Below are positions 5,871 through 64,000 of a stretch of DNA of 64,000 nt, piece after piece. The notes under the pieces were generated by a model that was not told the DNA's origin, made no database searches, and worked only from the letters and a program-made list of their open reading frames with translations. This stretch comes from Sphyrna mokarran (Eukaryota): NCBI GenBank assembly GCA_024679065.1, contig JAGIQG010000006.1, forward strand, positions 125,116,001 through 125,180,000, read 5' to 3'. The first letter of the stretch is position 1. Each line of letters starts with the position of its first letter. The translations under genes were made by a program, and so were the position numbers.

Positions 5871-6211
5871 GTGTCATGAAGTTTTACAGCACAGAAAGAG
5901 GCCCTTTGGCTATCATGTCTGCTCTGGCCATCAGAAGACAGGAGTGTCTAACATTTTTCAGGATTGTTCTCTGTAAAACATTTAACGTCCAAGACATTTA
6001 ATGTAAATGGCTTTGAGCCATAACTGATTGAATTTAGATTAAATTACTCTTAAATGTTCAGATTTCTTTTCAGAAAATGGTGAAGACTTAAAACATTTTT
6101 TAAACAACATTAAATCTGAACAACCGTTAGACGAACATGGAGACTTAATCACTTTCCTGGAAGAAGAATAATTAAATCCCAAGAATAATCCTTCAATGAG
6201 GCAAGTGTCTA

Positions 6212-6457
<246 letters not shown>

Positions 6458-10930: not shown

Positions 10931-11527
10931 CAAGCTTCTGGAACTCCTTATGCAAATCTGCAACTCTCAGCTGAAAAACTAATGGTACACGCAGCAACTA
11001 CAATAATTGCTGCAAGATACAATGACATACCAAATTGCTCTGAAAATATTCAAGTTTTTTTCCTACACTGATTCATAAGCAGGGCACCTAGATTTCAATT
11101 CAATGTAAAGTTAGCTATCTGCAGGTATTGAGCATGCAATGGGCAACTGAGTTATATAACTGCTGTCATTTATTGTCAGTAACTTGAAATACAACACAAG
11201 ATTTGAAATTTTAAAATCTCCTCCCAAACCGGAATTAAGTAATCATTTTCCATCTACAGCAGAATCTTGCTCTATGCACTCAACACACACAAAGTACAAC
11301 TTGTAATGTGATTGCTGAATTGCAAGGAAAAGAAAGGAGAATTATTCCCACCATAAATACCAACATTTCATCAAAATGGGAACCAAACTAATAAAATTAG
11401 ACAATTAAAATCACTTTCACCCACTTGGGTTAACATATCTTGCTATTTGGAAGTTGGCAAAGTAATTCAAAATCCTTTATAAACCGCTCTGGAACAGGTG
11501 GTGCTAGATTCTGAGCATTGTAGCTTA

Positions 11528-11725
<198 letters not shown>

Positions 11726-23479: not shown

Positions 23480-24200
23480 GGGAGCATATCTCAATGTCAA
23501 CAAAACAAAGGTGAGGGTCATCAAATTCAGGAAGCGTAGTAGACATGTCTTGTCTACATCAATTGGGACAAAGTAGAAACGGTCACAAACGACAAGTTTC
23601 TAGGTGTCCAGATAGCCAACAACCTATCCTCATCCCTCCATGCTGCAGTTAAGAAAGCCCATCAACGCTTCTACTTTCTCAGTATGTCTGCTACAACTCT
23701 CACCAACTTTTACAGATGCACCATAGAAAGCATTTTTTCTGGTTGTATTACAGCCTGGTATGACGTCTGCTCTGCCCAAGACTGCAAAAAAAAAACTACA
23801 AAGGGTCGTGAACAAAACCCAGTACATTATGTCACTCAGCCTCTCCTTCACTGAATCTGTGTGCACTTACTACGACCTTGGAAAAGCACCCAGCATAATC
23901 AAGGAGCCCATACACCTTGGGAATAATCTTTTCCATCTTCTTCCACCAAGAAAAAGATACAAAAGTGAGGTCATGTACCAACAATAGCTTCTTCCCTGTT
24001 GCCATCAGACTTTTGAATAGACTTACCTTGCATTAAGTCGATCTTTCTCTACACCCTAGTTATGACCGTAACACTACATTCTGCACTCTCTCATTTCCTT
24101 CACTATGTATGGTGTGCTTTGTCTGCAATAGCTCATAAGAAACAATGCATGTGACAATATATTCCAATATATGTGATCCTAATAAATCAAATCCAAAATA
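23480..24200 (+). mobile_element. Second Rex1/Babar-type LINE 3' fragment
   Basis: Same family as 21730-22340 (caccaacttttacagatgcaccatagaaag...ttccatcttcttccacc...aaaagatacaaaagt). Confidence 0.8.
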
Positions 24201-24539
24201 AGGTATTAATAAACAAGAAATGCTCCACCTGCATACCAATCGGCATAGGACTGATTATACAAACTCAATGGAATATGACTGAAACAAACCAACAAACTTG
24301 ATCCACCTAGCCAATGCTCCCTGGCAGGAAGGTTTGATTTACATAGAACTAACATTTGGAACTAACACCATCACAACACTGGCACTTTCCCAAAGCTCCA
24401 TCGAACGAAGGTCACAACACAACCCTCATACACATGCAGTTTGGCCAGTCCCCTGAACTGTTCCTGCATCATGACTCAAAATTTGCCTGTAATATTGCCA
24501 TTATACAGGAATATGCACTCTCTATGCCCTCCTGCAGGG

Positions 24540-25822
24540 CTGTCTACATAGCTGCCATTATACAGGGCTTTACTCCCAGCCCTGTGTGCACTGCTGCCAT
24601 TGTACAGGATCCTGCACTTTACCCCCAGACCTGATTGCATTGTTGCCATTGTACAAGACCCTGCAATTTACCCCAGCCCTGTCTGTATTGCTGCCATTGT
24701 ACAGGGCCCTGCACTTTACCCCCAGTCCTGTCTGCACTGCTGTCATCGCACAAGACCCTGCACTTTACCCCCAGTCCTGACTGCACTGCTGTCATTGTAC
24801 AGGACCCTGCACTTTACCCCCAGCCCTGTCTGCATTGCCATCATAGCACAGGACCCTGCACTTTACCCCCAGTCCTGTCTGCATTGCCGTCAGTGTACAG
24901 GACCCTGTACTTTACCCCCAGCCCTGTCTGCACTGCTATCATTGCACAGGACCCTGCACTTTACCCCCAGCCCTGTCTGCACTACTGTCATTGCACAGGA
25001 CCCTGCGCTTTTCCCCCAGCCCTGTCTGCACTGCTGTCATTGCACAGGACCCTGTACTTTACCCCCAGTCCTGTCTGCACTGCTGTCATTGCACAGGACC
25101 CTGTACTTTACCCCCAGCCCTGTCTGCACTGCTGTCATTGCACAGGACCCTGCACTTTACCCCCAGCCCTGTCTGCACTGCTGTCATTGCACAGGACCCT
25201 GCACTTTACCCCCAGCCCTGTCTGCACTGCTGTCATTACACAGGACCCTGTACCTTATCCCCCAGCCCTGTCTGCACTGCTGTCATTGCGGACCCTGTAC
25301 TTTATCCCCCCAGCCCTGTCTGCACTGCTATCATTGCACAGGACCCTGTACTTTATCCCCAGCCTGTCTGCACTGCTGTCATTGCACAGGACCCTGTACT
25401 TTATCCCCCAGCCCTGTCTGCACTGCATCATTGCACAGGACCCTGTACTTTTCCCCAGCCCTGTCTGCCTGCTATTCATTGCACAGGACCCTGTACTTTA
25501 CCCCCAGCCCTGTCTGCACTGCTGTCATTACACAGGACCCTGTACTTTCCCCCCAGCCCTGTCTGCATTGCTGTCATTGCACAGGACCCTGTACTTCCCC
25601 CCACCCTGTCTGCACTGCTATCATTGCACAGGACCCTGTACTTTATCCCCCAGCCCTGTCTGCACTGCTGTCATTGCACAGGACCCTGTACTTTATCCCC
25701 CCAGCCCTGTCTGCACTGCTATCATTGCACAGGACCCTGTACTTTATCCCCCAGCCCTGTCTGCATTGCTGTCATTACACAGGACCCTGTACTTTACCCC
25801 CCAGCCCTGTCTGCACTGCTAC
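24540..25822. repeat. 49-bp minisatellite, ~26 copies, in ACO1 intron 1; unit cctgtctgcactgctgtcattgcacaggaccctgtactttacccccagc
   Basis: Periodicity read directly (unit starts at 25021 and 25070). Degenerate copies extend left to ~24490. Confidence 0.97.
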
Positions 25823-25829
25823 CTTTGCC

Positions 25830-26150
25830 CGGAATCTTTCCTGCCGCCCCGCGAGCGGGCTCGGAAGAACAGAAAGAAAGATGTAAAAGGAGTATTGCTC
25901 GACGCGCCCAGCCCCGAGGGCAGTCAGTGTCACCGGTTCATTACCTTTTGCGGTGCGGGAGCACCGGCCGCAGCTTCACCAACAGCTGTCCCTCACCCAG
26001 CCGGCCCCCTGCGCGCATGCGTCCCGGCGGTGGCCCCCCCCCTCCCCCGCAGGCGCCGCGCGCATAGGCCCCGCCCACTCTCCGGCGTGATCGCGTCACG
26101 AGCCTGGATCAGCGTTTCCAACTGTCCCGGATTGTTCGGGGAGCCTCCAG
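25830..26150 (-). promoter_or_regulatory. ACO1: CpG island / probable ACO1 promoter and non-coding exon 1
   Basis: CpG-dense block in a CpG-poor background. GC box (ccccgccc ~26069), NRF1-like GCGCATGCG (~26013-26021), minus-strand donor CAAAAG|GTAATG at 25945/25944 (alternative TGG|GTGAGG at ~25997). Vertebrate ACO1 has a non-coding first exon. Confidence 0.8.
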
Positions 26151-28007
26151 CTGTTTCCTATAACATCGTCAGTTCTGGCAGTGATCGCCAAGGGAGGTAG
26201 TGCCGTAGTGGTATTTATCACTGAGCTAGTAATCCAGAGACCCAGGTCAATGCTGTGGAGCGGGTTCAAATCCCACCATGGCAGCTGGTGAAATTTGAAC
26301 CCTCCATAAACAGGAGTTCATCCAAACCATCCATTACCCTGACTTACAAAAGCTTTCAATGAAGCAGCACCCTGTTTAAAAATTCTCGACCTGGATTTCA
26401 AATCCGTCAACACTCCCTATCTTTATAATTTCCTCCAGTCCCACAAACCCCCTGCAATAGATGTTCATCTAATTCAGGTATACTGCTGATCTTAATTGCT
26501 CCATCATTGGTGGTTCTGCCTTCGGAGTTTGTGGTGGTTTTTGTTTTCCCAGTATTTAGTTGGCGGAAATACTTGCTCATCCAGTAGAGGACTTCGGACG
26601 GAAGTCTGACAAGGATTGGGAAAAGATTTGGGAGTAGACTACTTGAGAGGCATGATAGGGAGAGAATGAGTTCAATGGAGGATAAAGAGAAAAGAAAGTG
26701 TGAAAGGGAGAAGAAGTGGAATGATCAAAGGCTGCGAACCCTGAGGCGAGTAACTCATCGCCTGACCACCCCCAAATTTGTCCAACATCTACAAGGCACA
26801 AGTCAAGAGTGTGATGAAATACCCTCCAGTTGCCTAGATAAGTGCAGCTCTGACAACACTCAAGAAACTCAAGACCATCCAGGACAAAGCTGCCCATATG
26901 ATCAGTGTACCATTGGCTACATTCAACCTTTTCAGTCTCTACCACTGATGCCCAGTAACTGCAGAATGTACCATCTACATTGCAATAACTCACCCTTCCT
27001 TCAACAGCATCTTCCAAGCCCATAACCTCAACGAGCTAGAAGGACAAGGGTAGTAGACACATGGGAACACCAACGCCGACAAGTTCCTTTCCAAGTCACT
27101 CACCATCTTGATTTGGATGTATATTGCCATTCCTTTACAGATGATGAGTTAAAATCCTTGAATTTCCTACACCATATGGGGAGCAGTGATTCAAGAAGGA
27201 AGCTTGCTATCACTTTCTCAGGGGAAATTAGGGATGAGTAAGAAATGCTGCCCTGGGCAGCAATGCTCCCAAGAATGAAGAGAAAAATTAGACATGCTGG
27301 GCTTGGATCCAGAGCAGCCATCAAAATGCATACATGCAGTCAAATGCTATCATGTGCACCGCCCAGGCTACACACATGCATGCCTGTAAAAGCACAGACC
27401 TGCTGGGTTTGTGCAGAATAACTCTGCTTTATTTCTCAAATTCCCCACCACCCCCATCAATGATACTGATGCTAATTGTGGTGCTTATGTGGCCACCTTG
27501 ATTGTGAGATTTGCATGTTGTGCAGGTGAATTGGTCCTTGTAAAATTGCCCCTTAGTGTCCAAAGATGAGTAACTTAGATGATTATCAGGTTTAATGTGT
27601 GGTGTTACTGGGATGGAGCAGGGCTGGGTCTGGGGAAAATAGTTTGTCAAAGAGTCGGTGCAGACCCAATGGGCTGAATGGCTTCCTTCTGCAATATATG
27701 ATTAAACAAGAGATTCCAGAACAGGACCAAAAATGTCACCGTAGTCTAAATGGTTCAACTGTAGACTGCTTACGGCGGAGGAGAAAGGATTTGACAACAT
27801 TATTACAGATACGCTTTCTCTGCCATTCAGTAATTTCAGTTTGACTTGATTTGATTTAATTTATTAGCATGCAGTGAAAAGTATTGTTTTTTTGTGTGCT
27901 ATACAGACCATTCAAAGAGCAGGAAACAAGAGTAGTATTACTGTCATGGCTAGGGTGTAGAGAAAGATAGACTTAACATGAGATAGATCCATTCAAATGT
28001 CTGACAT

Positions 28008-43298: not shown

Positions 43299-43464
43299 CT
43301 ATGCATTATACACATTGGAAATGTTCTCCTTAGGTGCTTTACTTTTTGATGTACTCTTTGGATATTTGAGTCGATAGATTCGTTCTGCCTCCATTCGCTC
43401 CTCGTGCATTATTTCTTTGTCATCCAGCACTTTCAGTGTAGGTATTTGGCTAATAACATAATGC
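43299..43464 (-). CDS. LRMDA-like LRR gene, last coding exon: (R)HYVISQIPTLKVLDDKEIMHEERMEAERIYRLKYPKSTSKSKAPKENISNVYNA*
   Basis: Completes an LRRcap motif (YRxxVIxxIPxLxVLD). Acceptor ctttattcag at 43465, phase 2 matches the previous exon, TAG stop at 43301-43299. Confidence 0.88.
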
Positions 43465-45129
43465 CTGAATAAAGCAAGAAGTACAATGTTAACTGATTGT
43501 ACATTGATGGGCCCTTGCCTTGCAATGTGCAACATCTGAGAACCTTTTACTATTATCATTTGAACTGACTGATGTTTAAACAATTTTATATTTTTCAGAA
43601 GGTACAACTTCAATTTCAAAACAAGAGCAACACTTGAGTTTACTCAACCTCACAAATGCAATAAGAACAGAAAATTTCCTTGGAGTGCTCAACATACTTG
43701 ATCAAGCCCTGGATTCAGATACATACACACACACCTACACGAGGCATACAAGTTCCAGTGAGCATTTACAGGCTTGTTTGAAGTGGGGATGTGCATTTTG
43801 GAAGTAGACATAATCACGCAGTTTAGAAATCACATAGGTTGCTTTGAGGGAAATCAGAGGTCTTTATTAAAGTCAATCCAGATAAACATCAAAGCCTAGT
43901 TACAAGGGAGGAAATGATAGAAAATAAATTCAGTTATTTAACAAAGGCCTTGGTCTGAGAGAATTCTGGACATAGAAGGGGTGATTGAAATCCACAAACC
44001 CAGACATAAGCTAGGATGTCAAGGATACTTGTAACAATAACGAATTAAGGCAGCTAATATGACTAAGTTTTCATGCTGACTGGATATTATGATTAAGCAA
44101 ACACGTGATGGTAGTGATTGGGGTTTAACATTTGTATGTTATGTATGATGTAACCTGAATCAATAATTGTGAGTGGTTAAAGATAACTCCTGTACCTTGA
44201 TTGGCACATTGCTTATAATCAAATTTGAAACTATAGCTACTTGTCCATTCCTGAATTCTGGACACTGACAGTCCGCTAGCTGGCTCCCCAGAATCCTGTA
44301 GTTATAGCTCAAATAAACAGCTGTTATGAAAACACCATGACTTGATCCGGTATGCCTTATATGGCTTAACATATAAGGGAGAGGAGAGAACCAAGACCAA
44401 GGAGGAGTAGCTAATATTATATTGGTCATAGCAGAGGTAAGAAGCCCTGATTAATAGTTCAAGCATAGCCAAAAGCTTTGGAGAAGGTGAGGTTCACAGC
44501 TATCTGCATTTTATCTTTAGCCCATTATTCATCTCAGCAAGTATTCAGTAATTTCAATCTTAAGATGCATTCATGAGATTGTCACTCACTCAATGCTGAC
44601 CTGATTCCTGTCCCTAAACTCTTTTCTCTATTCCCTTTCTGACTCCAGAAGCTGCTACATGAGGCATCTCAGAAGAGGACAATCCTCGAGGGTGTACTGA
44701 CACACTCCTCCATGTAACAGCAGGACCACTGGCACTCTGCAGGAGACCAAAGATCTTTGTGCTCTGAGATACCCAGGGTGAGTGAGCAGTACAGGTGGTG
44801 GCAGGCACAGCCTGGGAGAGAAAGCTCACTATAGAGAAGGCCGTTTCAAACTCTGCAAGTTGAGACAAAGATGAAAACCTACAGATTATAGCCAAAAAAA
44901 GGATACTCTGAGGAACTTAAGCACGATAGAAAGAAAGAAAGAAACGTTTCAAAAACTTATATTTATGTAGCATCTTTAATAAAATGTCTCAAGGCATTTC
45001 ACAAAAGCATTAAAAAACAAATATGGCACTGAGTACATTCCAAAGATGTGTGGTTAGGTAAATTGGCCATGCTAAATTATCCCTTAGTGTCAAGGGGACT
45101 AGCAGATAAATGCACGGGGTTGTGGGGAT

Positions 45130-45990
45130 AGGGACTGGGTGGAATTGTGGTCAGTGAAGGTGCAATGGGCTGAATGGCCTTCTTCTGCACTGCAGGGTTC
45201 TATGATCTATAAAGAGATATTCGATCAAAAACTTGGTCAAACAGTTGGGATTTAAGAGGCATCTTATAGGAGGAAAGCAAGGTTGGGAGGTAAGAGGTTT
45301 CAGAAGGGACATCCAGAGCTTCTCCCTCCAGAGCTTCAGGCTGAGGTAAATGAAACCATGGCCACAATTATAATTATGAATGCTCAAGAGTTCAAAATTA
45401 AAGGGGCGCAGATATCTAGAAGTGTTGTGAGACTGGAGAAGATGACAAAGGTAAGGAGCTGATCTATGGAGCAATTTGAAAAGGATAATTTTAAAGTAAA
45501 CATGCTGCTTTACTTGGAGCCAGTGTGGGTCGGCAAGCAGAGGGGTGATAGGGGAATGGGACTTGCTGCGAGTTATGACAGGGTGTTTTCAGTGATTTCA
45601 AGTTTACTGGGTGTAGCATGTGGAACAGCAGACAGTCACTGGAATAGTTCAACAGGTAACAAAGGCAGAGATGAGGCTTTCGGCACTAGATGAGTTGAGA
45701 CAGGTGCAAAGTTAGATGATGTTACGGGGGCGTACAGTCTTTGTAATGGCAGTGATATGAAGTCAGAAGCTCATCCCGGGATTAAATGAGACAGTAAGGT
45801 TTTGAACTAACTGCTTAATCTCAAACTGTTGCTCGGGAGAGGAATGGAGTCAGTAGCTACGAAGCAGAGCTTAGAGTGGGGTCCAAAAGCAATGGCTTCA
45901 GTCTTTGCAATATTTGATTGTAGTAAATTTCTGTTCAACCAGCATTGAAAGCTGGATAAGCATCAAATAATTTAACAGCTTGAATATATG
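45130..45990 (-). mobile_element. L2-type LINE fragment with a SINE tail at its edge
   Basis: L2 3' motifs (...YLCHLLQSHNTSRYLR...); degenerate. Confidence 0.65.
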
Positions 45991-46186
45991 GTGACCCAAG
46001 GTACATTCCAAAGCACTTTACAGCCATTGAAGTACTTTTGCAGTATAGTCACTGTTGTAATGCTCTAGCTGAAATCTTGAGGGAGTCAGAATGAAAACAT
46101 GGCCAAAACGATTGCACTGTGAGTACAGGTTTTCTAGGATTCCCTTGCTTATAATGTGGAGATGCGTGCATTGCACTGAAATGGGC

Positions 46187-46362
46187 ACAATAAGAAGTCT
46201 CAAAACATCAGATTAAAGTTCAACAGGTTTATTTGGAATCATAAGCTTTTGGACCACTGCTCCTTCATCAGAATCACCTGATGAAGGAGCAGCGCTCTGA
46301 AAGCTCATGATTCCAAATAAACCAGTCGAACTTTAATCTGGTGTTGTGAGACTTCTTATTGT
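46187..46362. mobile_element. Penelope-like fold-back (~85-bp arms)
   Basis: acaataagaagtctc...ctccttcatcag / ctgatgaaggag...gagacttcttattgt inverted repeat. Confidence 0.85.
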
Positions 46363-46997
46363 CCTTTGTTTAAGGAAGATTTTGAAGGGGTGATTTAATT
46401 GATGTGTTTAAAATGATTGAAGGAGTTGTTAGGATAGATAGAGGGACTCTATTTATTTTAACAGAGAGGGATCAGGACAAGGGGGAGTAACCTTAGAACT
46501 AGATTACTTAGGGTGATGTCAAGAAGCACATGTTCATACAAAAGGTAGGGAAATCTGGAATTCTCTTCCCAAAAAAACAACTGAGGTTGTGGGGGGTGAA
46601 AATATCAAAACTGGGATTGATAGATTTTTGCTAGGTATGGGGGACATTGAACTGAGGTAAGATGCAGATCAGCCATGACTTAACTGTGATGGAACAAGTA
46701 TGAGGGGCTGAATGGCCTCCATCTGTTCCCAAGGAACTTCTGAGTAATTGCTCAGCCACTCCAGAGGTATCCTTCCAGTCTCTTCTTCTTCTGAAAGTAA
46801 TCTGATTTTACACATTGGGATATTAAGCATGAAGCTATGACGATTCTTCAGATAGATTACAAGGTTCCAACAGATTTATCCCCAAAAATCTAAAATCGGA
46901 GATTCAAAATTTGTAAATTCTGCTTCACCACACCTATTATGGTTGTACACGTCTCATTCTTTTCATTGTCCTTGCCTAATGAAGGGTTACTACTCAC

Positions 46998-47075
46998 CTA
47001 TAATCCATGTAGTCCTGTAGGCTTCCGCCATTAAAATAACTCGGTGCCGCCCCGTTGTTCATCATGCTCAGAATC
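46998..47075 (-). CDS. LRMDA-like LRR gene exon: (R)[25 protein letters not shown](R)
   Basis: 78 nt, phase 2-2, cgttag acceptor (weak pyrimidine tract), AG|GTGAGT donor. Corresponds to LRMDA YLSLLGNVACPN...EDYKRYR. Confidence 0.88.
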
Positions 47076-49065
47076 CTAACGTTCCATGTGCAAAATAACG
47101 AGTCATTAAACTAGTTGCGCCCCATATCCAAATACTCAGCAAGCAGACAGCTAAAGAAATACACAACAAAGCAATCATAAAAAGACAACTATAATATTTG
47201 TCCTGCTATTGAAACTGACCGCAAATTGACATAATCCGATATCTTTTTGTCTTCTGTATTTTATATTCCTCTTCAGGTAAATCTTTAATATTTAGGAGCC
47301 TGCAACAACTGCATTGCTCCCAGCTTCATTTACAAAACGCTGCTATGGTCCTGAATGACATAATTAATCATTCAGACTATTTTAATAATGTTAGCCTCAT
47401 GGCAAAAGATTGGTCGGGGAAAAGGAGGATTCTGTTCTAGCAATTTGACACCAGCTCTTTGTACACTTGCTTGCAGGCAATGCAAAGCTGCATACTGAAG
47501 ATGTTTAAAGGATTGCTCTTTTTTTCAGCACAATGCTCAGGAGTTTCTTATCTCAAAAGGTACAGTGAAGCACTCTCCCTAACATGACAATGGTGACTAC
47601 TCTTCAACATCGCATCATTGGCTGGCAAGGGCTTTTGAGACGTCCTGAGGTCATGAAAGGCACCATAGATATTTTCTCTTCTCTCCTTTCTTGCTTCCTT
47701 CAATTCGTCCAGGCACTTTGAGTATGATTAAAAAATAATTTTTCCTCATGTTGCTTTCAGCCCTTTACTCTGACGTTTGGTTTTATTATGTTTCAGTTAT
47801 ATCTTCTAAATTCCAGAGAATTTAGACCCACTAGGGAACAATTTTAAATCAATTGCACTCATCAGATCTGACGGGTGTAAAATCGAGGTTCGATCAAACC
47901 CACGGATTTTCATGTAGTTTAAAACTCCACTATGCAGCAAATTACGGCAAAAACTCTTTTCTGGCTTCAACATTGCGAGAGATTGGATTGAAAGAATCAT
48001 TTAGATGAGCACTTTAAGGGCCATATTATTCATAGAATCATAGAAACACTCTTGTGCAAATGGAGGCCATTCAGCCCACCGAGTCTGCACCAACAACAAT
48101 GCCACCGTATTCCCAGAATACCACATAGTTATCCTGTTAATCCCTCTAACCTACACATCCTGGGACACTAAGGGGCAATTTAGCTTGGGCAATCAACCTA
48201 ACTCACACATCTTTGGACTGTGGAAAGAAACCGGAACACCCTGAGGAAACCGACGCAAACATGTACAAACTCTGCAAAGACCTGAGCCAGAAATCCAACT
48301 CAGGTCCCTGGAGGTGTGAGGTAGCAGTGCTAACTACTGTGCCACTGTGCTGCCCTCGATGCTACCATGCCGCCCTCAAGATTACAGACCTAGTGCTAGA
48401 AAATGGGATTAAATGGATAGGTGCTTGATGGCTGGTGCAGGCATGGTGGGCTAAAGGGCCTCTTTCCGTGCTGTAAAACTCTATATCTATGACTGATGAT
48501 CCCGAGTGCTGGTTAATGGTTGTCTAAATCACTGGGCAACAAGGGCAGTTAACAACAGCAAACGACCAGTAGGAATTGACACAATCTTCAAAGGATACTT
48601 GAAGGAAAGTTAGAGACAACAGTAATACTTAGACTTTTATAGCACAGAAGCAGGCTAATTGTCACTTTGCCATATGAGCCTCCTTGCACCACATTTCATC
48701 TCACCCAATCAAACAGATTGTCCCATTCCAGTGTAAACGGCTAAAATCATTCACTCCCTGACCAGTGATCTGAGGGTAATTTTCCATAAGATCTGGAGTC
48801 TGCTGACACCTGCTGGTTTGTTTTAGTTTTGCACCAGAATCTGTGAAAATGCAACTCACAACATTGCAGCAGTGATTTAGATGTGAGCTAGAACCAGAGA
48901 TGCAAATTATCCAACTCAATTGTATATATATTTCTGTGGGCAATCACAGAATAGTAACAGTGTTAAAGCGTTTTTGGGGTGGGGGACAGACTCCATAAGG
49001 TATAACCCCTGTGGTTGTTGCTCTCATGACATTCCACCCCTTGTGTCTTAACAAAAATAAACCAT

Positions 49066-49455
49066 GGGTTGGCTGTGACAGTGGGTACCACTTCTGCCTT
49101 CGGGTCAGAAAGCTGTGGCCTCAAGTCCTAGTGTGGAGACTTGTGTGCTAACATCTGAGCTGACATACCAGTGCACTGCTGGAGGACTGCTACAGTAGTA
49201 GAGCCATGACTTAATGAAAATCTTTTAAATGAAAAGTTAAATCAGGGACCCACCTGACCTCTCAAATGTATGTCAAAGCTCCATTTTAACAAAAAACAAA
49301 AGAGTTCTCTTTGAGGTGCTGACCAATATTTATCCCTCAAATCAATATCACTGAAAAACAGATTATCTCGTCATTATTTTGGTGCTGTTTGTGAGGTTTT
49401 GTTGTGCAGAAATTGGGTGTCGTGTTTGTAGCGTAACAACAATGATTCCACTTTA
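49066..49455 (+). mobile_element. Old DeuSINE/SacSINE1-like SINE
   Basis: tRNA-like head, Deu-domain-like core and ...ccaatatttatccctca...acagattatct...gctgtttgtg tail. Other copies at ~1-220, ~40370-40500 (-) and ~57975-58200. Confidence 0.65.
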
Positions 49456-51154
49456 GTCAGATTTTTAATTGCTGGTGAAGGGTGACTTCGGCAGCAATTT
49501 AAAAATTACATTCTTGGAGATCATCTTGACGCCTTCAAGAGGCACCATGATTTTCATATGGAGGGCGGTGGAATGGGAGGCAGAACTTGTGCCTTCAGTT
49601 AATGGCTCATTAAGTTCTTTAAGAAGTTTATTTACAGGCCATGCCAGGGTGGGGGGGGGGGGGGGGGTGGCGGTGGTGGTTGGGATTTTGTGGACAAACT
49701 GGAACAGTTTGGTATACATTAATGTCTGGGGCTCATTGTTGATAGAACCAAAAGTTCATTTCTAATAGATTGTTTGTTTATGCAACATCTTGCACTAGAT
49801 CAAGAGCATTATTTTCATCTTGGTGGCACAGTCATTTTCCTTGGCTTAAAGCTATCTGCTCTATCCTAAAAGACAGCAGAAGGCTCCATCATGGCACATG
49901 CTTTGCAGACAGCTCCTGCCTCCTGGTATTGTGTGCCAGGTTTGCCTCTTGCCTAATTAGAGTATTCGCATTTCAAAATGCTATGGAGTTAGCCCCCAGA
50001 ATGTATTTGAGCATCACATTCCCAATCCCGCAAGTTTGGCACTATATAAATGCAAGTCTTTCTTTTGTTTACAATTCTCAGTTTTGAAATTTTCAAATTG
50101 ACCTCTGTGAATGTCTTTCGCCCAGAAGTGTTGCAAAAAGGATAATGTAGTTTTCTTTTTGAAAAGTCTGTAGAATCTGTAATTGTTTTAAAGGATGTTT
50201 GAAAAGAATTTATAAGGGTTTACATCAGTTATAAAGGGAACAATTGTGGTCTTCTTGAATTGTAAGGATTACTGGTTCATTAGGCTTGGCAACCTTTAAC
50301 TTGGAAGCTGTGCCAGAGGATGGAACTTTGAGAAAGAAGCTGAGAGGTTGGCTGATACAAAGGAGAGCTGCAGGCACAAAGGAGTGAGAGGGTAAAGGTG
50401 ACCAACACACAGATGCAGATAGAAAGATAAAGCAGACAGGGACAGAAAGAGGGACCAGAGAATTTTTATGAGCAGAAGAAGCAAATCACTCTCAGGAAGA
50501 GTTCGGCTTTTCTGTTTGGCAGGAAAGGAGAAAGAAGTTCTTAGAGAGAATTGCAGGGGAGTGGGGGGGTGGAGGGGAGGGGTGCAGTGGCAGCGGTCCC
50601 AGGGCTGGCCAGCAATCAGGAGGCCAGCAGTGCGGTACTACTGTGCATGTGCCAATCTCGGCACGGACTGATCAGTGCATAAGCAATGGCCCATTCAGCA
50701 CTATGCTACCACCCTCTCCAGGGGGCAATAGACCTAACCCATTGATTATTGTTTCATGCTACTGCACTCTGCGGTGCACCGAGTGTGGGAGATTCATTTT
50801 AAAACTCTGGCTCAAAAAAACCAGTGTGATTTACTCCAGTTTTTACATGAATTCGATACTTAGAATTTTTTTGAGAATCCATCCTCTAGTATCACATCTG
50901 TGTATGGAGTGACATGAATGCTTGAGATTGGTGAAGACGTATCTTTGTCGTATGGACAATTTAAAGTGAAATTTACCTCTTTTTTATTTGAAGTATCATT
51001 TGCCTGTTAAATGTGATTTGCATTGGTTTTGCTTCATGTTAAAGTAACATCTACAAAAAGCGTAATCTTCATGTGACTGAAATTCAAGTTGCCACAAACA
51101 GGACATCAAAATGTCCGAAAAAAAAATAGCTCTTTCAATATACGTATACCTTAC

Positions 51155-51337
51155 CTGATTTGAGGAAGGTTTTTAGCTATCTCTGCAATGAAAATAGCCA
51201 AATTAGTAATTTTGTTCTTATTTATCCACAAGATGGTGAGATTTGGCATGTAAGCAAACTTAACATGAGAGGTGAAATTGTTGCCATCCAAAATCAATGT
51301 AGTTAATTTTCTCAGCTCCCCAAGCTGTGAAAGGTTT
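51155..51337 (-). CDS. LRMDA-like LRR gene exon: (E)[60 protein letters not shown](R)
   Basis: Not in the ORF track; translated by hand. Two LxxLxLxxNxL/I repeats, 183 nt, phase 2-2, AG|GTAAGG donor. Confidence 0.9.
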
Positions 51338-53709
51338 CTGAAATACTAGAGCTAAGGAAGACAATTGCCACTGGTGGATAAGCTGAATAAGAGAAACTGA
51401 CCAACTGACAATGCAAGACATGGATACATAATAATGAAATCCCGTTGTCCTGAACTAGTCACAGTATCATCAATATTCTGGCAGGTTCCATGTCAACACT
51501 GGGATATGGAAAGACAATTAAAGCTTCAGAAAATGCTTTTCCTTTCTCAATTTAGGATAAGAGGAACATCCATTATTATAAAATCACTCTCCCTTTCCAG
51601 TTATTAGAGTTTATATATAAACATCAAAGAGTGGACAATTTGACTAATATCTTAAGGGGTAAGACTAAATTGCTATGGCAATACAGTGGCACAGTGGGTA
51701 GCACTGCTGCCTTAAGTGCCAAAGACCTGGCTTCAATTCTAGCTGTTGTGGAATTTGTACATTCTTGCACATGTCAGCATGGTTTCATCAGGGTGCTCCA
51801 ATTTCCTCCCACAGTCCAAAGATGTGCAGGTTAGGTAGATTGGCCATGCTAAATTGTCCCTCCATATCCCAAGATGTGTGGTTTGGGGGGATTAATGGGG
51901 TAAATATGTGGGGATATGGTAAGACAACATGGATGGGATTCTCTGTTGGAGAGTCAGTAATGATTTGATGGACTGAATGGCCTCCTTCTATTCTGTAAGG
52001 ATTCAATGATTCTATGAAATCTGCCTTGTGGGGTGAATCCAATACTGCCCAATTATTATGCTTTACGCATGTCTTTAACACATGTTTTCTCTTTTGGGTC
52101 ATCAAGTGAATTATCCCAGTATCCTGGGTCAGAAATTTACTGTATACATAGCAATCCATGCCATCACTGTCATTGGGCTAGTAAATCTGAGGGCACTAGT
52201 ACCTCAACACAGGAAAAAATTAAAAGGGTAGAACATTAAAACAGAAATGGGAGCAGGAGTAGGTACCAGTAGATAAGATGGTCTCTTGAGCCCGCTCCAC
52301 CACTTAGTAAAATCATGGCAGTACCTCCACTCAATGCCACATTCCTATCCTAGCCCCATATCTCCTGATTTCATTAACACCCAGAAGGTTATTAATCTCA
52401 GTCTTGAACATACTAAATGACAAAGCATCCACCGCCCTCTGTGGAACAAAATTCCAAATATTCAAAACTCCCTGCAAAGAGATTCCTCCTCATCTCTGTC
52501 CTAAATGACCCCTTCTCCTGAGACTATCATTCCCTGGCTGGGACTTTCCAGTCCTGTTCACTACAGGGCTGGATAGTCCTGTTTAATGTCAACGGATCTT
52601 TGTCTGATCCGTTAAATTTTCTATCCTGCCTGTGACAATTCCTTTCAGTTTCATCGTTCTGGACTCTCTAGCCAGAGGAGTCATAAACATCAAAGATTTG
52701 AAATTCAGTGGGCATGTTTCCCACCAGCGGGAGGTGGTATGTTATTTGCGACCAGCAGGATTCTCTTGTCATGCCTCTGTCAATGGGAATTCCCATTGAC
52801 ATCACTGCTTACCAGCAAGAAATTCATGGATGATGGTACGCTGCTGGAGAATCCTCCGGATTAACAATCGGAGAATTCCAACAGTTTCTTTGGTATAGGT
52901 CTGCATAAGAGATTAAGTAGAGGTCTAGAACCATGACATGTTTGGCAGGCTAACCCTTGGAAGTGGAGGTAACCAAGGCGGACAGAACAGAATTGCATTT
53001 ACTCAAATCTAATTTACCATCAAATTTTATTGACAGGGAGATATAGCTTAAATGGAAGAGTATTTGTTCTTTTCCTCCCATTTTAATGCTGATTTTGTCT
53101 TTCCTTTGTATTTTTTCTCCTCCCCCCTCCTTTTCACATGCATTTTTTTAAGAGTTACAAGCAATTCCCCTAGAGTTGTTGTGAGGTCCCCACTCTTGAA
53201 GCTGCAGCTGAGTGGTGCATTTTTGTTCCTATGTTCTGAATGCTGCTTCATAATTGGCAGTGAGAAAATCATTTTGACCATAAAGTTCTCACCTATTACT
53301 CTGGGAAAATCTCTAGGTTCTCTCCGCTGATATCATAACAGGAATCAGTATCCCCTATCCAAACTCTCCACAGGGCAATAACTTGCTGCAGTTTCAAGCA
53401 GAGAACTTTACAGCAAGAAACAGGCCATTTGGCCGACTGGCCAGTGCTGGTGTTTTTTGTTGCAACTAGCCTCCTCCAGTCAACCTCATTTCATTCTATC
53501 AGAATATATTTCTATTCCTTTCTCTCTTATGTGTTTACTCAGCTTCCCCTTAAATGCATTATTAACAGAGAAGATATGCTCTAAGAGATATCACACAACT
53601 TAATAAATCAAGGAGAAAAAAGTATTTTCACAAATCTACAAGTTTTGCAGTTACCGCCTTTGTAATGGTTAACAGTCAAAATAATAAACAAAAAATAGTT
53701 AAAGGATAC
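51338..53709 (-). other. U12-type (minor spliceosome) GT-AG intron
   Basis: 5' splice site GTATCCTTT at 53709-53701. Branch-site-like TTCCTTAGC at 51359-51351, 13 nt from the exon. No long pyrimidine tract. The reading frame is preserved (GA|A = Glu). Confidence 0.88.
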
Positions 53710-53828
53710 TCATCAAGACAGTTGTGGCTGAGGTCAAGTTCTTCAAGACTTGAAGAATGTAGGAGTATTTTGATGAAAGGCATTTCTTGGAGATTTAGAT
53801 GGGCGAAAGACAATCTTCTTATTTGCAT
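53710..53828 (-). CDS. LRMDA-like LRR gene, first recognisable coding exon: MQIRRLSFAHLNLQEMPFIKILLHSSSLEELDLSHNCLD(E)
   Basis: LEELDLSHNCL LRR. The ATG has A at -3. A candidate acceptor ttttgtgacag lies at 53855, so an upstream exon probably exists; the true start codon is less certain. Confidence 0.85.
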
Positions 53829-53989
53829 TATTAAAAATATTGGGATAGGGGTACCTGTCACAAAATTACTTTCTATCAATGCCTTTAATCTGGTTCCGCA
53901 ATCACCCCAAGCAGGGAAAGAAGTTCAGAATCACAGAGTGCAAAAGAGGCCCTTCAGCCCATTGAGTCTGTACTGACATGTGAGAAACA

Positions 53990-54820: not shown

Positions 54821-57800
54821 TCATGACGAGTTCTTGAAACATTGCAACAAATGAGGTAGATCATCAAACCATTTCAAAAAATTATTGATTGCAAAGTAAT
54901 CTAGTTTGATGATTCAAATGAAAAGCATTGGAAAATGCATACAGAAACTGAGCAGAAAACCAAAGAAAACAGAGGCCAGGGAATCGTATACCATTTTGCA
55001 GGAAATGTGGCAGGGACTTTGTTCCAGAGTGGATTGCTGAACCCCGCCAGGTGATGTTTGACACAGAGGTGACCCATCGTGTAAACTGTAACTTACAAGG
55101 TGGGCAACCAAATGATAATTAAGGCAAAATCATTATCAAAAAGCCCCTAAAAACTAAGTTGTACCTTTTGCTGCAGCTGCTGAAATGTTTCCGGATGAAG
55201 GGCCAGTTGTATATCAGTGAAAACAGATTACTCTCATGTGCTTTTGCAATCTCTCACACTGCTTTTCAGCAGAAAACATCACGTGATTCCTACCCTCCAG
55301 ACTCAATCAAGTGTCACAAGACTGGCAGAGGAGAAATTATCTAGCAAATTGTGTGAGTGACAGTCAACTCACAGCATCGTGACAGCTAAAGTGCATCCAG
55401 AACTCTACATTCCAAGCTTTATACTCCAATATAATGGGGAAAAATTTAACAGTGTGGGGCTCCTTTCCCTGGAAAAACGAAATCTGAGAGGTGGACAATA
55501 AGAGGTCTTTAAAATGATGAAAAGATTTGATTGGGTAGACACAGGGAGGATGTTTCTGAATGTTGAGAGAGTCCAAATTAGTGTCATCAGTATAAGATAA
55601 TCACTAATACATCCAATAAGGAATTCAGGAGAGAGAATTCACTACCATGTGGAGGAGCTGTGCCTACTATGTTTGATACATTTAAGAGGAAGCTCCGTAA
55701 ATGCATGAGAATAAGAGAAATGGGGGATGCTCATAGGATGAGATGAAGGAAATGGAGGAGGTCATGTCTCCTACCATGAGCCTCATGGCTCATACCATAA
55801 TCACTGGTATACAGACAAGTTGAGCCAAATGGCCCATTTCTGTGCAGTAAAAGTCTTTGTAATTTGATGTAATTATATTTCCTAGCTAATGCATATGTAT
55901 GAAATGTTTTCATCTGTGAGGATTGTGGTCCTTAAACTTTACTACAATAAAAATCAAATAGTGGTAGAAGTCTCTGATGTAGTTCTGTCGCTTCACCATC
56001 AGTTTTCCAATTGCTACTGACCCACCTTCATCTCCTAAAAGCAGAAATCCATACCCCTATACATGGTGTGCCAAAAAATTATTAATTGCATTTTTACTGA
56101 GAAGCCATTTTACTCCTTCATCTGTCTCCCATTTTGATCTCAGTGGTCGCCTATACTGTTCCAGTAAAGCCCATCATGAGCTCAAGGAAAATCTTGACTA
56201 CATTCATCCTGAAACTGGAAAATCCCACCTGAGGTCAATGGACCTTTCTATGGTCTGCCTATCGCCTGCTATGATCCCCATGGTGGGCGCAATGGGAAAA
56301 TTCACCCTCTCATTTTTCAGTTAGCCACTTAACGGTTTTCTGGTGTCAGCACTGAGTTCAACAAGTAAAAGAAAAGCAAAATACTGTGGATGCTGGAAAT
56401 CTGAAATAAAGATAGAAAATGCTGGAAAATCTTAGCAGGTCTGGCAACGTTTGTGGAAAGAGAAAGGGAGTTATGTTTTGAGTCTGAGTGACTCTCCAGA
56501 GTTAAACAGAAGGAGAAATGTGATAGATTTTATTGGATAAGGGGGTGGAGGAGGTTGGGTAAAATAAAGGGTCAGGGATAGGTGAGAGCTCAGAATAGAT
56601 TTGATAAAGATGTAAGGAGCACAAGACAAAGGGAGTGTTAATAGTAGTGTTAAAAACTAAAGAAAGTGTTGATAGTGGCATAAAGATAAGAGCAGTATAT
56701 GTTGATCACTTACCTGATGAAGGTGCAGCACTCTGAAAACTCATGCTTTCAAATAAATCTGTTGGGCTTTAACCTGATGTTGTGAGACTTTTTACTGTGC
56801 CCACCCGAATCCAATGCCAGCATCTCCACACCATGTTAATAATAGATCAAGGGTCAGTGATTTCTGAAAGCAAGGCTTAAGAACAAATGACAGATGGTCC
56901 TATGTGAGGAATGTTGGAAGAGGTGTTAGGACAAAAAATTGAATTTAAAAAGGGAGTTAAGGTGGAGGATGTTCTTAAATGTCGCTTAAGAGTAGGAAAG
57001 ACTCTTGCAGAGCATACTATTTCAAACGATCTGTTTCAGTCCTGAGTATTCTACATTATTTTAAAATGTGCTTTGCAATTTTAAATATTATTATTGTCAC
57101 ATGAGAAAAATGGCAAACCTTGATGAGTGATAGGTTAAATGCTGAATAGCCAAACATTATATTCACTTGTAAAGCTTATTAACAAAAAAAAATCTATTAA
57201 AGCAGTTTATGTTCTAGGTTCTAGTTTTAATCTAGATTCTTGTGGAGGAGTTGGGCTGAAAGGCCAGTTTCTATGCTGTAGTTTCTATATAATTATGTGT
57301 AATTTATTTTCCTGCTGCACTGGAATTTCATAACCCTTTCTCCCTTGTACTATGTAAAAATGCAGCTCAATCCTTTCCATTTGCCTTGAGTTGGCTGATT
57401 ATGACATTTCAATATGTGGTCTCTTGTTTTGGATACAATGCATGATCTAATGACATTTTTTGATAGTTCTCATTTCCTATCTTTTAAATGGCCCTGATTT
57501 AATAGTGCTGGTCGTTTTAGTGACAAAATTGAATAGGTTAATAATTCATCCAATTTTTTTTAATGCCAAGGGCAAAAAGATTTTCACCAAGAATTTTTTA
57601 AGAGCTGCTCCCCTGTCACTGCTGTAACTTTGCTAGAAGCTAGAGTGGGAATTTTATATTTGGCACTTCTAAGGAAGTTACAGCTATGAAGTGAGAGAAC
57701 TCTGAAGGAATTTCTAAGTTGTTTTTATTTCCTTTTGCTTGACTATTAGGACTTGAGACCAAGTGGCCCCTTTAGTAAGGCAGTCTCAGAAGGCACAGGA

Positions 57801-61574: not shown

Positions 61575-61900
61575 TTCATTAATTGGTTGGAGAGCTCACT
61601 TCCGGAATGGAAGGCCTCACTTACCCCGGAAGTAGATGATTGGAGGAGACCGGAAGCAGGCTGGGCTGGAGCTGTGGGGCCCTCGAAGAGGAGCTGAGGG
61701 TGTTTTTTGGCAGAATTTGTTTTCTTCTCTGTTTCCTTTGGTGGTCGGTGAAGTGAGCGGGCGGCCGACATGTCGATCGAGATCGAATCGGCGGAGTAAG
61801 CGGAGCCGTTAGAATTCAAACCGTGCGGGACCGTTAATGGAACGCGGGGCGGTTGGCGGCTCGAGCCTTGGAGCGCGCGGCGGCAGCGACGACAGCTCTG
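61575..61900. promoter_or_regulatory. CpG island, probable bidirectional promoter (SMU1 on +, LRR gene on -)
   Basis: CpG-rich. ETS/GABP sites ACTTCCGG 61598-61605, CCGGAAGT 61626-61633 and CCGGAAGC 61650-61657. CCAAT boxes (ATTGG) at 61582 and 61639. Minus-strand donor GGG|GTAAGT at 61625/61624. Confidence 0.8.
61770..61795 (+). CDS. SMU1: SMU1 (WD40 spliceosomal B-complex protein) first coding exon: MSIEIESA(D)
   Basis: ATG TCG ATC GAG ATC GAA TCG GCG GA|GTAAGC matches the SMU1 N-terminus (human MSIEIESSDVIRL...). It is a 26-nt coding exon in a CpG island, and SMU1 is linked to ACO1 on human 9p. Exon 2 was not found in the window. Confidence 0.9.
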
Positions 61901-64000
61901 CAATCAGAAAGCAAAGCCCAGTTCTTTAGTTTAATATAGATCCCAGAGTAGAGAGTTCGAGCAGTAAATTCATTCTTTGCATTATTTGCGGTATAGGCTG
62001 GGCTTGGCAATGCAATGACTCCGGGGTTGAATTGAAAATAAACATCCGGCCCTTTAAAGATGGAATTCACTACCACAGAAAGTAAAGGCCAAAACCTTGT
62101 CTAGACCGCAGGGATTCTATGATTACGGAGGAAAGGAGATCAGGATATTAAATTGGATGATCATACTGAACGGCAGACCAGTCTCAAAGAGCTGAATGAC
62201 CTACTCATAGCTCCTACGTTTCTGTGATGAAGGCTGATGTGTAAAGGTCTGTCCCTTCGATGGAGTCCCCACTGATGGCTGGGACCCAAACCCAAGGGGC
62301 TTGGTAATATGAGATGGTCACTAATATGCTGGTAAAACACTGGTTTAGCTTCAACTGGAGCATTGAACAACAAAAACAAAAAAGTGGACAGCACAAGAAT
62401 CCTAACCCTTTGCTCCTCCAAGCCCATATTGATCATGGTGCCCTAATTAAATTACAAAAAAAACCCCATCTGCCTTTACTTGGTCCACTTCCCTCTCTAT
62501 TCATGTACCCATTCAGATACCTCTTAAATGTTGCTAAAGTGCTTGCTTCCACCACCATTTCAGGCAGTATGTTCCAGGCACCCACTACTCTGAAAAAGTT
62601 CCCACCACACATCATAGGACCCCTAAAGTATAGAACGAGGCCATTTGGCCCATCAAGTCTGTATTGACCACAATCCCACCTGGGCCCAAATCCCTTGGAT
62701 TTGCCCTGCTAATACTCCTGACATTGGGTCAGTTTAGTTTGGCCACTCCATCTAACCTGCACTGTGATTGGGAGAAAACCCACGCAGGCACAGAGAAAGT
62801 GTTTGAGGCAAGGATTGAAGCTAGGTCACTGATACTGAAGCAACAGTGCTAACCATTCTGCCACTGCCACCTCCCTTAAATTTGGTAACCCCCCCAACAT
62901 GGGGAATAATTAGAACTAGGGAGATGCTTTAAAAATAATGCAGTGTCTCCCTTAAGTCGGAGACACAAAGGCATTTTTTTTTCCAATGCAGGTCTTGAAT
63001 CTTTGCAACTTCATTTCCCTGCAGTGCGGTGGAAACTGGACCAATTTTTTTTTTTTATGGCCAAAATGGACACACTTGACTAACAGTGGAGTTTGGGGTT
63101 ATTGGTGGGACTGGGTACGCTGAAAGTAGAGTCAAGACCAAAATGGGATCAGCTGTCATCTTATTGAATGGTGGAGGAGGCTTGAGGGGCTGAACAGCTG
63201 AGTCCTGTTCTTAATTTGTATTGTCTGCACTTCAGGGTGTTGGGCAGCCCTGTGGAAAAATTATCAGGACGTTCAAAAAGGATTTTTTGTTTGTCATTTT
63301 CTTCGTGTTTTTATGTCAAAATGTTGACAATGGGGGTGGGGGAGCATGGGTTGGGAGGTAGAACAACTGTTGCCTTAACAGTTCAGCTTCAGCCAAGTGG
63401 ATAATGAGTCCTTTTGCTTTCCAATTAGCATAGTAAGTCACAAGGATTGATGTGGTTGACGAATGGCTGAAGTGTGAGGGCAATTCCTATGATCAAACTT
63501 CCAGATATACATTTAATCACATTGGCAACCTTAATTACAGAAGTTCAGAAGGATGGCTCCCAGGCTGAGGAATGGCAGTTACAAAGATAATATAGGAGAA
63601 GTTGGGATATTTTTCCTTGGGGAGAAGATTGTGAGGACCAGCTGTTGTGACAACTGGGATGTTGTAACTGTCAGAAGTGACTCAATAAGCTTCTCTATTC
63701 ATGGAGAGGACTGATGGGCAATTTGATTTAGTTCTTTGAATATGAAGGGTTCAATAAGGTAGATATAGAGAAGGTGTTTCTGCTTGTGGAGGGAATTCAA
63801 AACCATAAATATAAGAAAATCAGCAATAAATCCAATGGAGGAATTTAAGGGAGACGACAATGCATTAAGAGAAGGCAGTAGGAGTGTGTGTTAATGGAGT
63901 TAAGTGAAGAGAGTGTGAAGAAGAATGTGGAGCACAGTCATCAGTATAGAAAGGCATTTTTTAAGTGATTTCCATTTGCCCGGGTATTACAGATAGGAAG

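Follow-up and report, generated by a model that had tools for sequence, protein, structure and literature searches.

A four-exon leucine-rich-repeat gene of Sphyrna mokarran belongs to an ancient tail-less sister subfamily of LRMDA, possibly of RAB32/RAB38 effectors

A window of 64,000 nucleotides (nt) from Sphyrna mokarran (assembly GCA_024679065.1, contig JAGIQG010000006.1, positions 125,116,001-125,180,000, forward strand) carries on its minus strand an intact, single-copy gene with leucine-rich repeats (LRRs) and an LRRcap. By sequence comparison, the encoded protein is a paralogue of LRMDA (C10orf11, OCA7) that lacks the LRMDA tail motif, ends in a basic tail, and conserves in part the face with which LRMDA contacts RAB32. 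The gene belongs to an ancient tail-less sister subfamily of LRMDA, the members of which, we propose with a probability of roughly 0.4, would be effectors of active RAB32/RAB38-family GTPases uncoupled from Retriever/Commander.

Gene structure and a separate LRMDA in the same genome

The gene has four coding exons of 119, 183, 78 and 166 nt, which sum to 546 nt and give 181 codons followed by TAG, with 0 internal stops after joining. The three introns (2372, 4079 and 3533 nt) are all GT..AG and all in phase 2. Exon 1 (53710..53828, minus strand like the other three) provides the start ATG, the N-terminal strand and helix, and the first LRR; exon 2 (51155..51337) encodes LRR2, LRR3 and a helix, and includes N79 and K80, equivalent to N83 and K84 of human LRMDA; exon 3 (46998..47075) covers the last LRR strand and the signature loop of the subfamily; exon 4 (43299..43464) encodes the LRRcap and the short basic tail. 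A search of the genome with P0002, the great white shark orthologue, recovered exactly these four exons and no second locus (four matches, E 5.6e-29 to 4.1e-8). Exon 1 matched P0002 with E 1.4e-13 and gave LRR_6 and LRR_4 matches under the cut-off, and exon 4 matched the C-terminal part of Pfam LRR_9 with E 0.0019. An earlier note on this DNA, made from the letters alone, had described the same four exons, and our translation equals the protein given there; it had also stated that two exons are invisible in the open-reading-frame track, and at the cut-off of 80 amino acids (aa) only exons 1 and 4 indeed lie within listed frames. A reading of the gene as a pseudogene was rejected on the open frame. 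Teleost N-terminal extensions, when searched in the window, gave scattered short matches only and no upstream coding exon.

The true LRMDA was found on another contig. The LRMDA of whitefly (P0250) matched three exons at 13.20-13.22 Mb of contig C905 of the genome (G000:C905), and its tail matched the last LRMDA exon about 240 kb further on the same contig, ending in IRDDQL and a stop. IRDDQL is likewise the terminal motif of human LRMDA (10.1101/2025.02.04.636395). The window protein and the C905 LRMDA are identical at 39 of 129 aligned residues (30%). LRMDA and the window gene have in common the N-terminal LRR domain, the LRRcap, an N-x-A-x-P loop, the concave-face residues D61, N83, K84, S108, P116 and D147, and one intron position, in phase 2, within a Y-x-x-Y-R helix. 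They differ in locus, in the substitution of Y106, N117, L119 and F145, and in the tail, which is short and basic in the window protein; the Retriever motif [IL]-x-[DE]-x-x-[IL], placed at the very end after G-N-R-F-I, is present in the C905 gene and missing from the window protein. Four of four LRMDA-type queries matched the LRR exons only at E<=1 in the window, where no tail exon was found. The one match to a tail-motif pattern was a chance match outside any gene, with an in-frame TGA, and was rejected. The absence of the LRMDA tail and the position away from the LRMDA locus, both claimed in the earlier note, are thus borne out, and so is the compactness of the gene: its coding span is 10.5 kb, while the LRMDA exons located on C905 extend over more than 260 kb.

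Phylogeny and age of the split

HMMER, run against 1.84 billion representatives, found 673 matches at E<=1e-10, the best 150 of which were taken up. A large tree was built from 134 rows (the window protein, the C905 LRMDA, 13 fish proteins and 119 of 149 other representatives, 30 fragments or giant repeat proteins being dropped), and a careful tree from 38 chosen rows; both trees separate the window protein from the C905 LRMDA, but they are unrooted, with weak deep branches and mostly unnamed rows. In the 38-row tree, the window protein falls in a jawed-fish clade supported at 100/100, and the branching of this clade matches the species tree. The C905 LRMDA is joined with whitefly LRMDA at 99/97 and with four further rows at 100/99, three of which, including one from Anaeramoeba, have the LRMDA tail. 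A branch supported at 96/91 places moth, damselfly, rotifer, nemertean and choanoflagellate proteins on the same side as the window protein. Forcing the fish rows together with the C905 LRMDA cost 82 log-likelihood units, with p-AU 2e-54 in the approximately unbiased (AU) test. At this value the window clade is separate from LRMDA, and an origin as a vertebrate-only or genome-duplication copy of LRMDA is rejected. Orthology to LRMDA was rejected on the same test, the separation in the tree and the presence of the true LRMDA on C905.

Because insects hold proteins of both types, the trees place the split of the two subfamilies before the insect-vertebrate ancestor, far earlier than a vertebrate duplication. 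Among metamonads, Anaeramoeba has an LRMDA-type protein and Trimastix an NGG-type protein, which suggests a still earlier date. The invertebrate proteins named LRMDA-like (Spodoptera, Ischnura) and a group of unnamed proteins, here called ACPN/NGG, share with the window subfamily a loop of the form AAPS[YF][FL]NGG or ACPN[YF]FNGG and 35-51% identity over the domain. Many of these relatives carry long proline-rich or acidic-tryptophan tails, whereas the jawed-fish proteins do not. In the accessible portions of the literature, none of these relatives was found characterised, one being mentioned in passing as an Anopheles hub gene (PMC11223346). In Drosophila, CG31076 is named as the single LRMDA orthologue (10.64898/2026.05.27.728351).

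Distribution in jawed fishes

A database search with exon 2 alone gave seven proteins among 47 candidates, six of them chondrichthyan and one from a catfish. The search with P0002 gave 280 matches among 330 candidates, and the counts in this and the following sections refer to the best 120 of these 280. They comprise 6 chondrichthyan proteins, 109 from named ray-finned fish and 5 unnamed rows placed among teleosts by the tree. Identity to the window protein is 88% in Mustelus, 76% in the chimaera (P0005) and 52-60% in four ray-finned fish. These comparisons show orthology at the sequence level across jawed fishes (sharks, chimaera and ray-finned fish). Seventy-nine positions are conserved in at least 95% of the best 120, and the window protein deviates at 9 of them. 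Its residue 109 is G, whereas 112 of 114 rows have E there; Mustelus shares this E109G.

Coelacanth, lungfish and tetrapods are all represented in the database, yet none of them appears among the best 120 of the 280 matches. The same is true of rays, catshark and carpet sharks. With rays and several sharks also missing, and with 160 weaker matches outside the set, the data no more than suggest a loss in land vertebrates.

The database names of the orthologues are inconsistent and include LRMDA, LRRC72, U2A' and uncharacterised; the zebrafish orthologue, XP_068078894, is called LRMDA in RefSeq. Where a fish orthologue is called U2A' or LRRC72, the name was assigned automatically. The earlier note had proposed an uncharacterised LRMDA paralogue. 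Paralogy stands, and a literature search covering titles and the beginnings of abstracts, without supplements, found no study of this paralogue, which may occur in gene lists under LOC or si: names. The gene is, however, neither shark-specific nor a new gene model, since it is present in RefSeq and UniRef for many fishes. It has already been predicted in public annotations under misleading names; a description of it as a distinct ancient subfamily was not found in the literature search.

Fold, signature loop and tails

The LRR and LRRcap architecture given in the earlier note agrees with profile and structure searches. Pfam LRR_9 (PF14580) was passed by three of three full-length orthologues, with 44-48 bits versus a cut-off of 30.5. 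The predicted structure of the chimaera protein P0005, based on an alignment of 88 sequences, has a predicted local distance difference test (pLDDT) score of 92.9 and a low-confidence tail; an earlier model from 25 close sequences reached 66.8, and its Foldseek search served as a pointer only. Structural matches fall in the U2A'/SDS22/axonemal LRR-LRRcap class (125-152 residues aligned at Z 14-18), U2A' itself being matched at Z 17.4. The model thus predicts four to five LRR strands closed by an LRRcap, in the U2A'-type fold class. This fold is common to U2A' (SNRPA1), SDS22, ANP32, DNAL1, CFAP410 and LRRC23, but identity in the structural alignments is only 20-29%, and no sign of their partners was seen. 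For the axonemal proteins DNAL1, CFAP410 and LRRC23, the likeness consists of fold matches only, at 19-28% identity.

The signature loop, of 16 residues, is present in 113 of the best 120 matches. The tail of the fish orthologues has a median length of 27 aa and is net positive in 117 of 119, and the strict Retriever motif occurs in 0 of 120. An acidic tail was found in 0 of 20 jawed-fish (gnathostome) rows. Of 41 long tails in the ACPN/NGG group, 20 contain an acidic tryptophan motif (shuffle mean 0.065, maximum 2 of 1000), and 11 have an acidic end with tryptophan (shuffle mean 0.94; 0/2000 reach 11), both motifs having been defined after the sequences were seen and the rows sharing kinship. 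These tails resemble what we take to be the Arp2/3-binding acidic motif. The unnamed eukaryotic relatives P0133-P0267 of this group, apparently a nameless family, show a repeated acidic tryptophan motif together with proline runs.

RAB32-contact residues and a predicted complex

Human LRMDA binds GTP-RAB32 through its LRR domain and Retriever through its tail (10.1101/2025.02.04.636395). Tail-less LRMDA is reported to retain RAB32 binding (10.1101/2025.02.04.636395), which is stronger than that of the full-length protein (PMC12338710), and mutation of N83, K84, Y106, N117, L119 or F145 abolishes binding (10.1101/2025.02.04.636395, PMC12338710). We anchored the human numbering in the C905 gene, where Y, N, L and F are spaced like human Y106, N117, L119 and F145. 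The six equivalent residues of the window protein are N79, K80, I102, S113, F115 and V139; two are identical to LRMDA, three are other hydrophobics, and one is changed from N to S. The equivalents of N83 and K84 are each kept in 19 of the 20 gnathostome rows, with one gap, those of D61 and S108 in 20 of 20, and that of T79 in 19 of 20.

Complexes of the chimaera protein P0005 with chimaera RAB32 (P0346), GTP and Mg were predicted with scores of 0.58, 0.51 and 0.58, versus 0.01 for the best control; contact agreement between runs was at least 94%, and the partner pLDDT at least 90. Of 78 solved pairs, 51 reach the mark set for this score, as do 2 of 108 mismatched ones (39/65 and 2/126 in eukaryotes). 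The predicted complex lends weak support to binding. It shifts the odds only modestly, because the pass is weak, RAB32 was a plausible guess beforehand, and the PDB searches gave no LRMDA structure. Three RAB32/38-family genes are present in the genome (L013, L014 and L015). One of them, L015, matches a shark group named Rab-38-like, which is separate from the RAB32a rows listed alongside it. A Rab sequence pattern gave a single chance match, outside any gene, which was rejected.

Proposed function and alternatives

According to the RAB32/RAB38 effector reading, the protein would be recruited to lysosome-related organelles by docking its concave LRR face on GTP-RAB32/38, and the short basic tail would help it to hold acidic membrane. 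Without a Retriever tail the protein could not bring Retriever; therefore, it would either compete with LRMDA for Rab binding or connect the Rab with a different partner via the invariant AAPSYFNGG loop. Several points weigh against this reading. Four of the six tested contacts differ (Y106 to I102, N117 to S113, L119 to F115 and F145 to V139), and N117K is reported to abolish RAB32 binding in human LRMDA. Conservation of the concave residues may reflect a structural role or contact with another partner. The complex was run on a chimaera pair with controls that included no other Rab, and cousins of a true partner can pass; scores of 0.60 or below account for only 5 passes among the 78 solved pairs, and for all 4 mismatches that passed. 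In addition, the top structural matches, at Z 17-18, are tied between axonemal, spliceosomal and other LRR proteins.

These points leave room for other functions. A ciliary or flagellar LRR protein of the axoneme, central pair or basal body, like DNAL1, CFAP410 and LRRC23, is a possible though doubtful alternative: doublet-microtubule and central-pair chains are among the top matches (Z 18.1, root-mean-square deviation (rmsd) 3.4, 152 aligned; Z 17.4, rmsd 2.3, 144 aligned), the named holders (fish, rotifer, nemertean, insects and choanoflagellate) all make cilia or flagella, and the DNAL1 and CFAP410 clusters score 0.93-0.94 by features. However, U2A' (Z 17.4) and Nischarin (Z 17.1) match about as well as the ciliary chains do, which makes the fold generic, and LRMDA-named clusters score higher by features (0.96-0.97). 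It is also conceivable, though we have our doubts, that the protein is a cytosolic adaptor which has lost RAB32 binding and uses the AAPSYFNGG loop for a changed partner, such as another small GTPase or an actin or trafficking factor. Serine occupies the N117 position in all 20 gnathostome rows and in 45 of 48 other rows of that tree side, F145 is not kept, and the acidic tryptophan motifs of the ACPN/NGG tails point to another class of partner; the weak pass with RAB32, the retention of N83 and K84 and the lack of an acidic tail in the jawed-fish protein argue the other way.

A nuclear protein, with the basic tail as a nuclear localisation signal, U2A'/ANP32-like RNA processing and co-expression with the neighbouring splicing factor SMU1, would fit the tail, the U2A' fold (Z 17.4, rmsd 2.0, 139 aligned) and a possible head-to-head promoter with SMU1. 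It is unlikely, since in sequence U2A' is a remote relative (E about 1e-5) and LRMDA a close one, the promoter shared with SMU1 is no more than a candidate, and adjacency is not function. Least of all do we expect an LRMDA orthologue, to which the RefSeq names would point, a recent vertebrate duplicate or a decaying copy. Such a gene might explain why rays and several other sharks gave no match and why the window protein has G at a near-invariant E, but the true LRMDA lies elsewhere in the genome, the AU test and the open frame speak against it, the fish gene tree follows the species tree, and E109G is shared with Mustelus. The effector reading can be extended to a wider history, which we consider rather unlikely as a whole: early eukaryotes would have had a pair of RAB32-binding LRR adaptors, one branch with the Retriever motif and the other with an ancestral acidic-tryptophan tail for Rab-actin nucleation, and the latter would have become in jawed fishes a tail-less competitor tuning melanosome or phagosome maturation, lost towards land vertebrates.

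Minor-intron signals and upstream region

In the GT-AG subtype of U12-type introns, the 5' splice site has the consensus RTATCCTTT, and the branch site TTCCTTRAY lies 10-25 nt before the acceptor. Intron 1 of the window gene carries such minor-spliceosome signals at the DNA level, which the earlier note had overlooked. Its putative 5' splice site (53701..53709, minus strand) reads GTATCCTTT and matches the consensus at 9 of 9 positions; this 9-mer occurs 3 times among the 3633 GT of the minus strand of the window. The putative branch site (51351..51359, minus strand), TTCCTTAGC, matches at 8 of 9 and begins 22 nt from the acceptor, whereas introns 2 and 3 reach only 5/9 and 6/9. These calls are simple consensus matches on DNA, with no weight-matrix score. 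Database protein models differ greatly at the intron-1 junction, and 3 of the 120 listed models, as well as P0007, have E-Y-P there, the residues expected if a GTATCC donor were read through. From protein models alone, this hints that minor intron 1 is kept in bony fish.

The true LRMDA also has a U12-type intron, of the AT-AC kind, at G000:C905:13201734-13202843 (L008, L005), with an ATATCCT donor and a perfect branch site, TCCTTAAC. LRMDA and the window gene thus each have one intron with U12 signals, at different sites. A literature search of titles and abstract beginnings found no mention of a U12-type intron in LRMDA/C10orf11. Two sequence patterns for an upstream LRMDA exon on C905 gave no match.

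Upstream of the window gene, a candidate splice acceptor (53855..53870, minus strand) lies 26 nt before the ATG and would make exon 1 the second exon. A candidate promoter with a non-coding first exon (61599..61660, minus strand) is located at the edge of the SMU1 CpG island; it holds three CCGGAAG-type sites, all three of the 64-kb window, and a donor at 61624. Seven further donor-like sites lie between 53860 and 61800. A 5' untranslated exon and a head-to-head (bidirectional) promoter with SMU1 are possible from these elements.

Neighbourhood of the locus

Upstream of the LRR gene, a CpG island (61599-62000) contains a plus-strand start at ATG 61770 reading MSIEIES, which we take to be that of SMU1. 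Between the two genes, an open frame of 113 aa (55983-56321, plus strand) had no Pfam match at E<=1 and is probably non-coding. Downstream, an ACO1 exon matches Pfam Aconitase with E 3.7e-21; minus-strand ACO1 exons were noted at 6209-6454 (Pfam Aconitase) and near 11500-11700, and a CpG island at 25751-26250 is likely the ACO1 promoter. A C-rich tandem repeat at 24500-25900, probably a minisatellite, contains several long open frames (up to 521 aa) without a Pfam match. An open frame at 21534-22025 matches ALKBH8_N with E 7e-8, presumably the typical mark of remnants of fish long interspersed nuclear elements, and a similar copy lies near 23543-23987. Ten other long frames of the window, compared with Pfam, gave a single, repeat-associated match, and a search of the window for transfer RNA genes found none.

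Significance

LRMDA bridges RAB32 to Retriever/Commander, with links to albinism (10.1101/2025.02.04.636395) and gut immunity (PMC12338710), and the accessible portions of both papers treat it without a paralogue. The surprise is moderate, as the gene was already predicted and its fold is ordinary. The LRMDA label on this gene in zebrafish and sharks can mislead orthology assignments and fish models of OCA7. A sister of LRMDA with a partial RAB32 face and without the Retriever tail, present in zebrafish, is a natural test of RAB32 effector choice.

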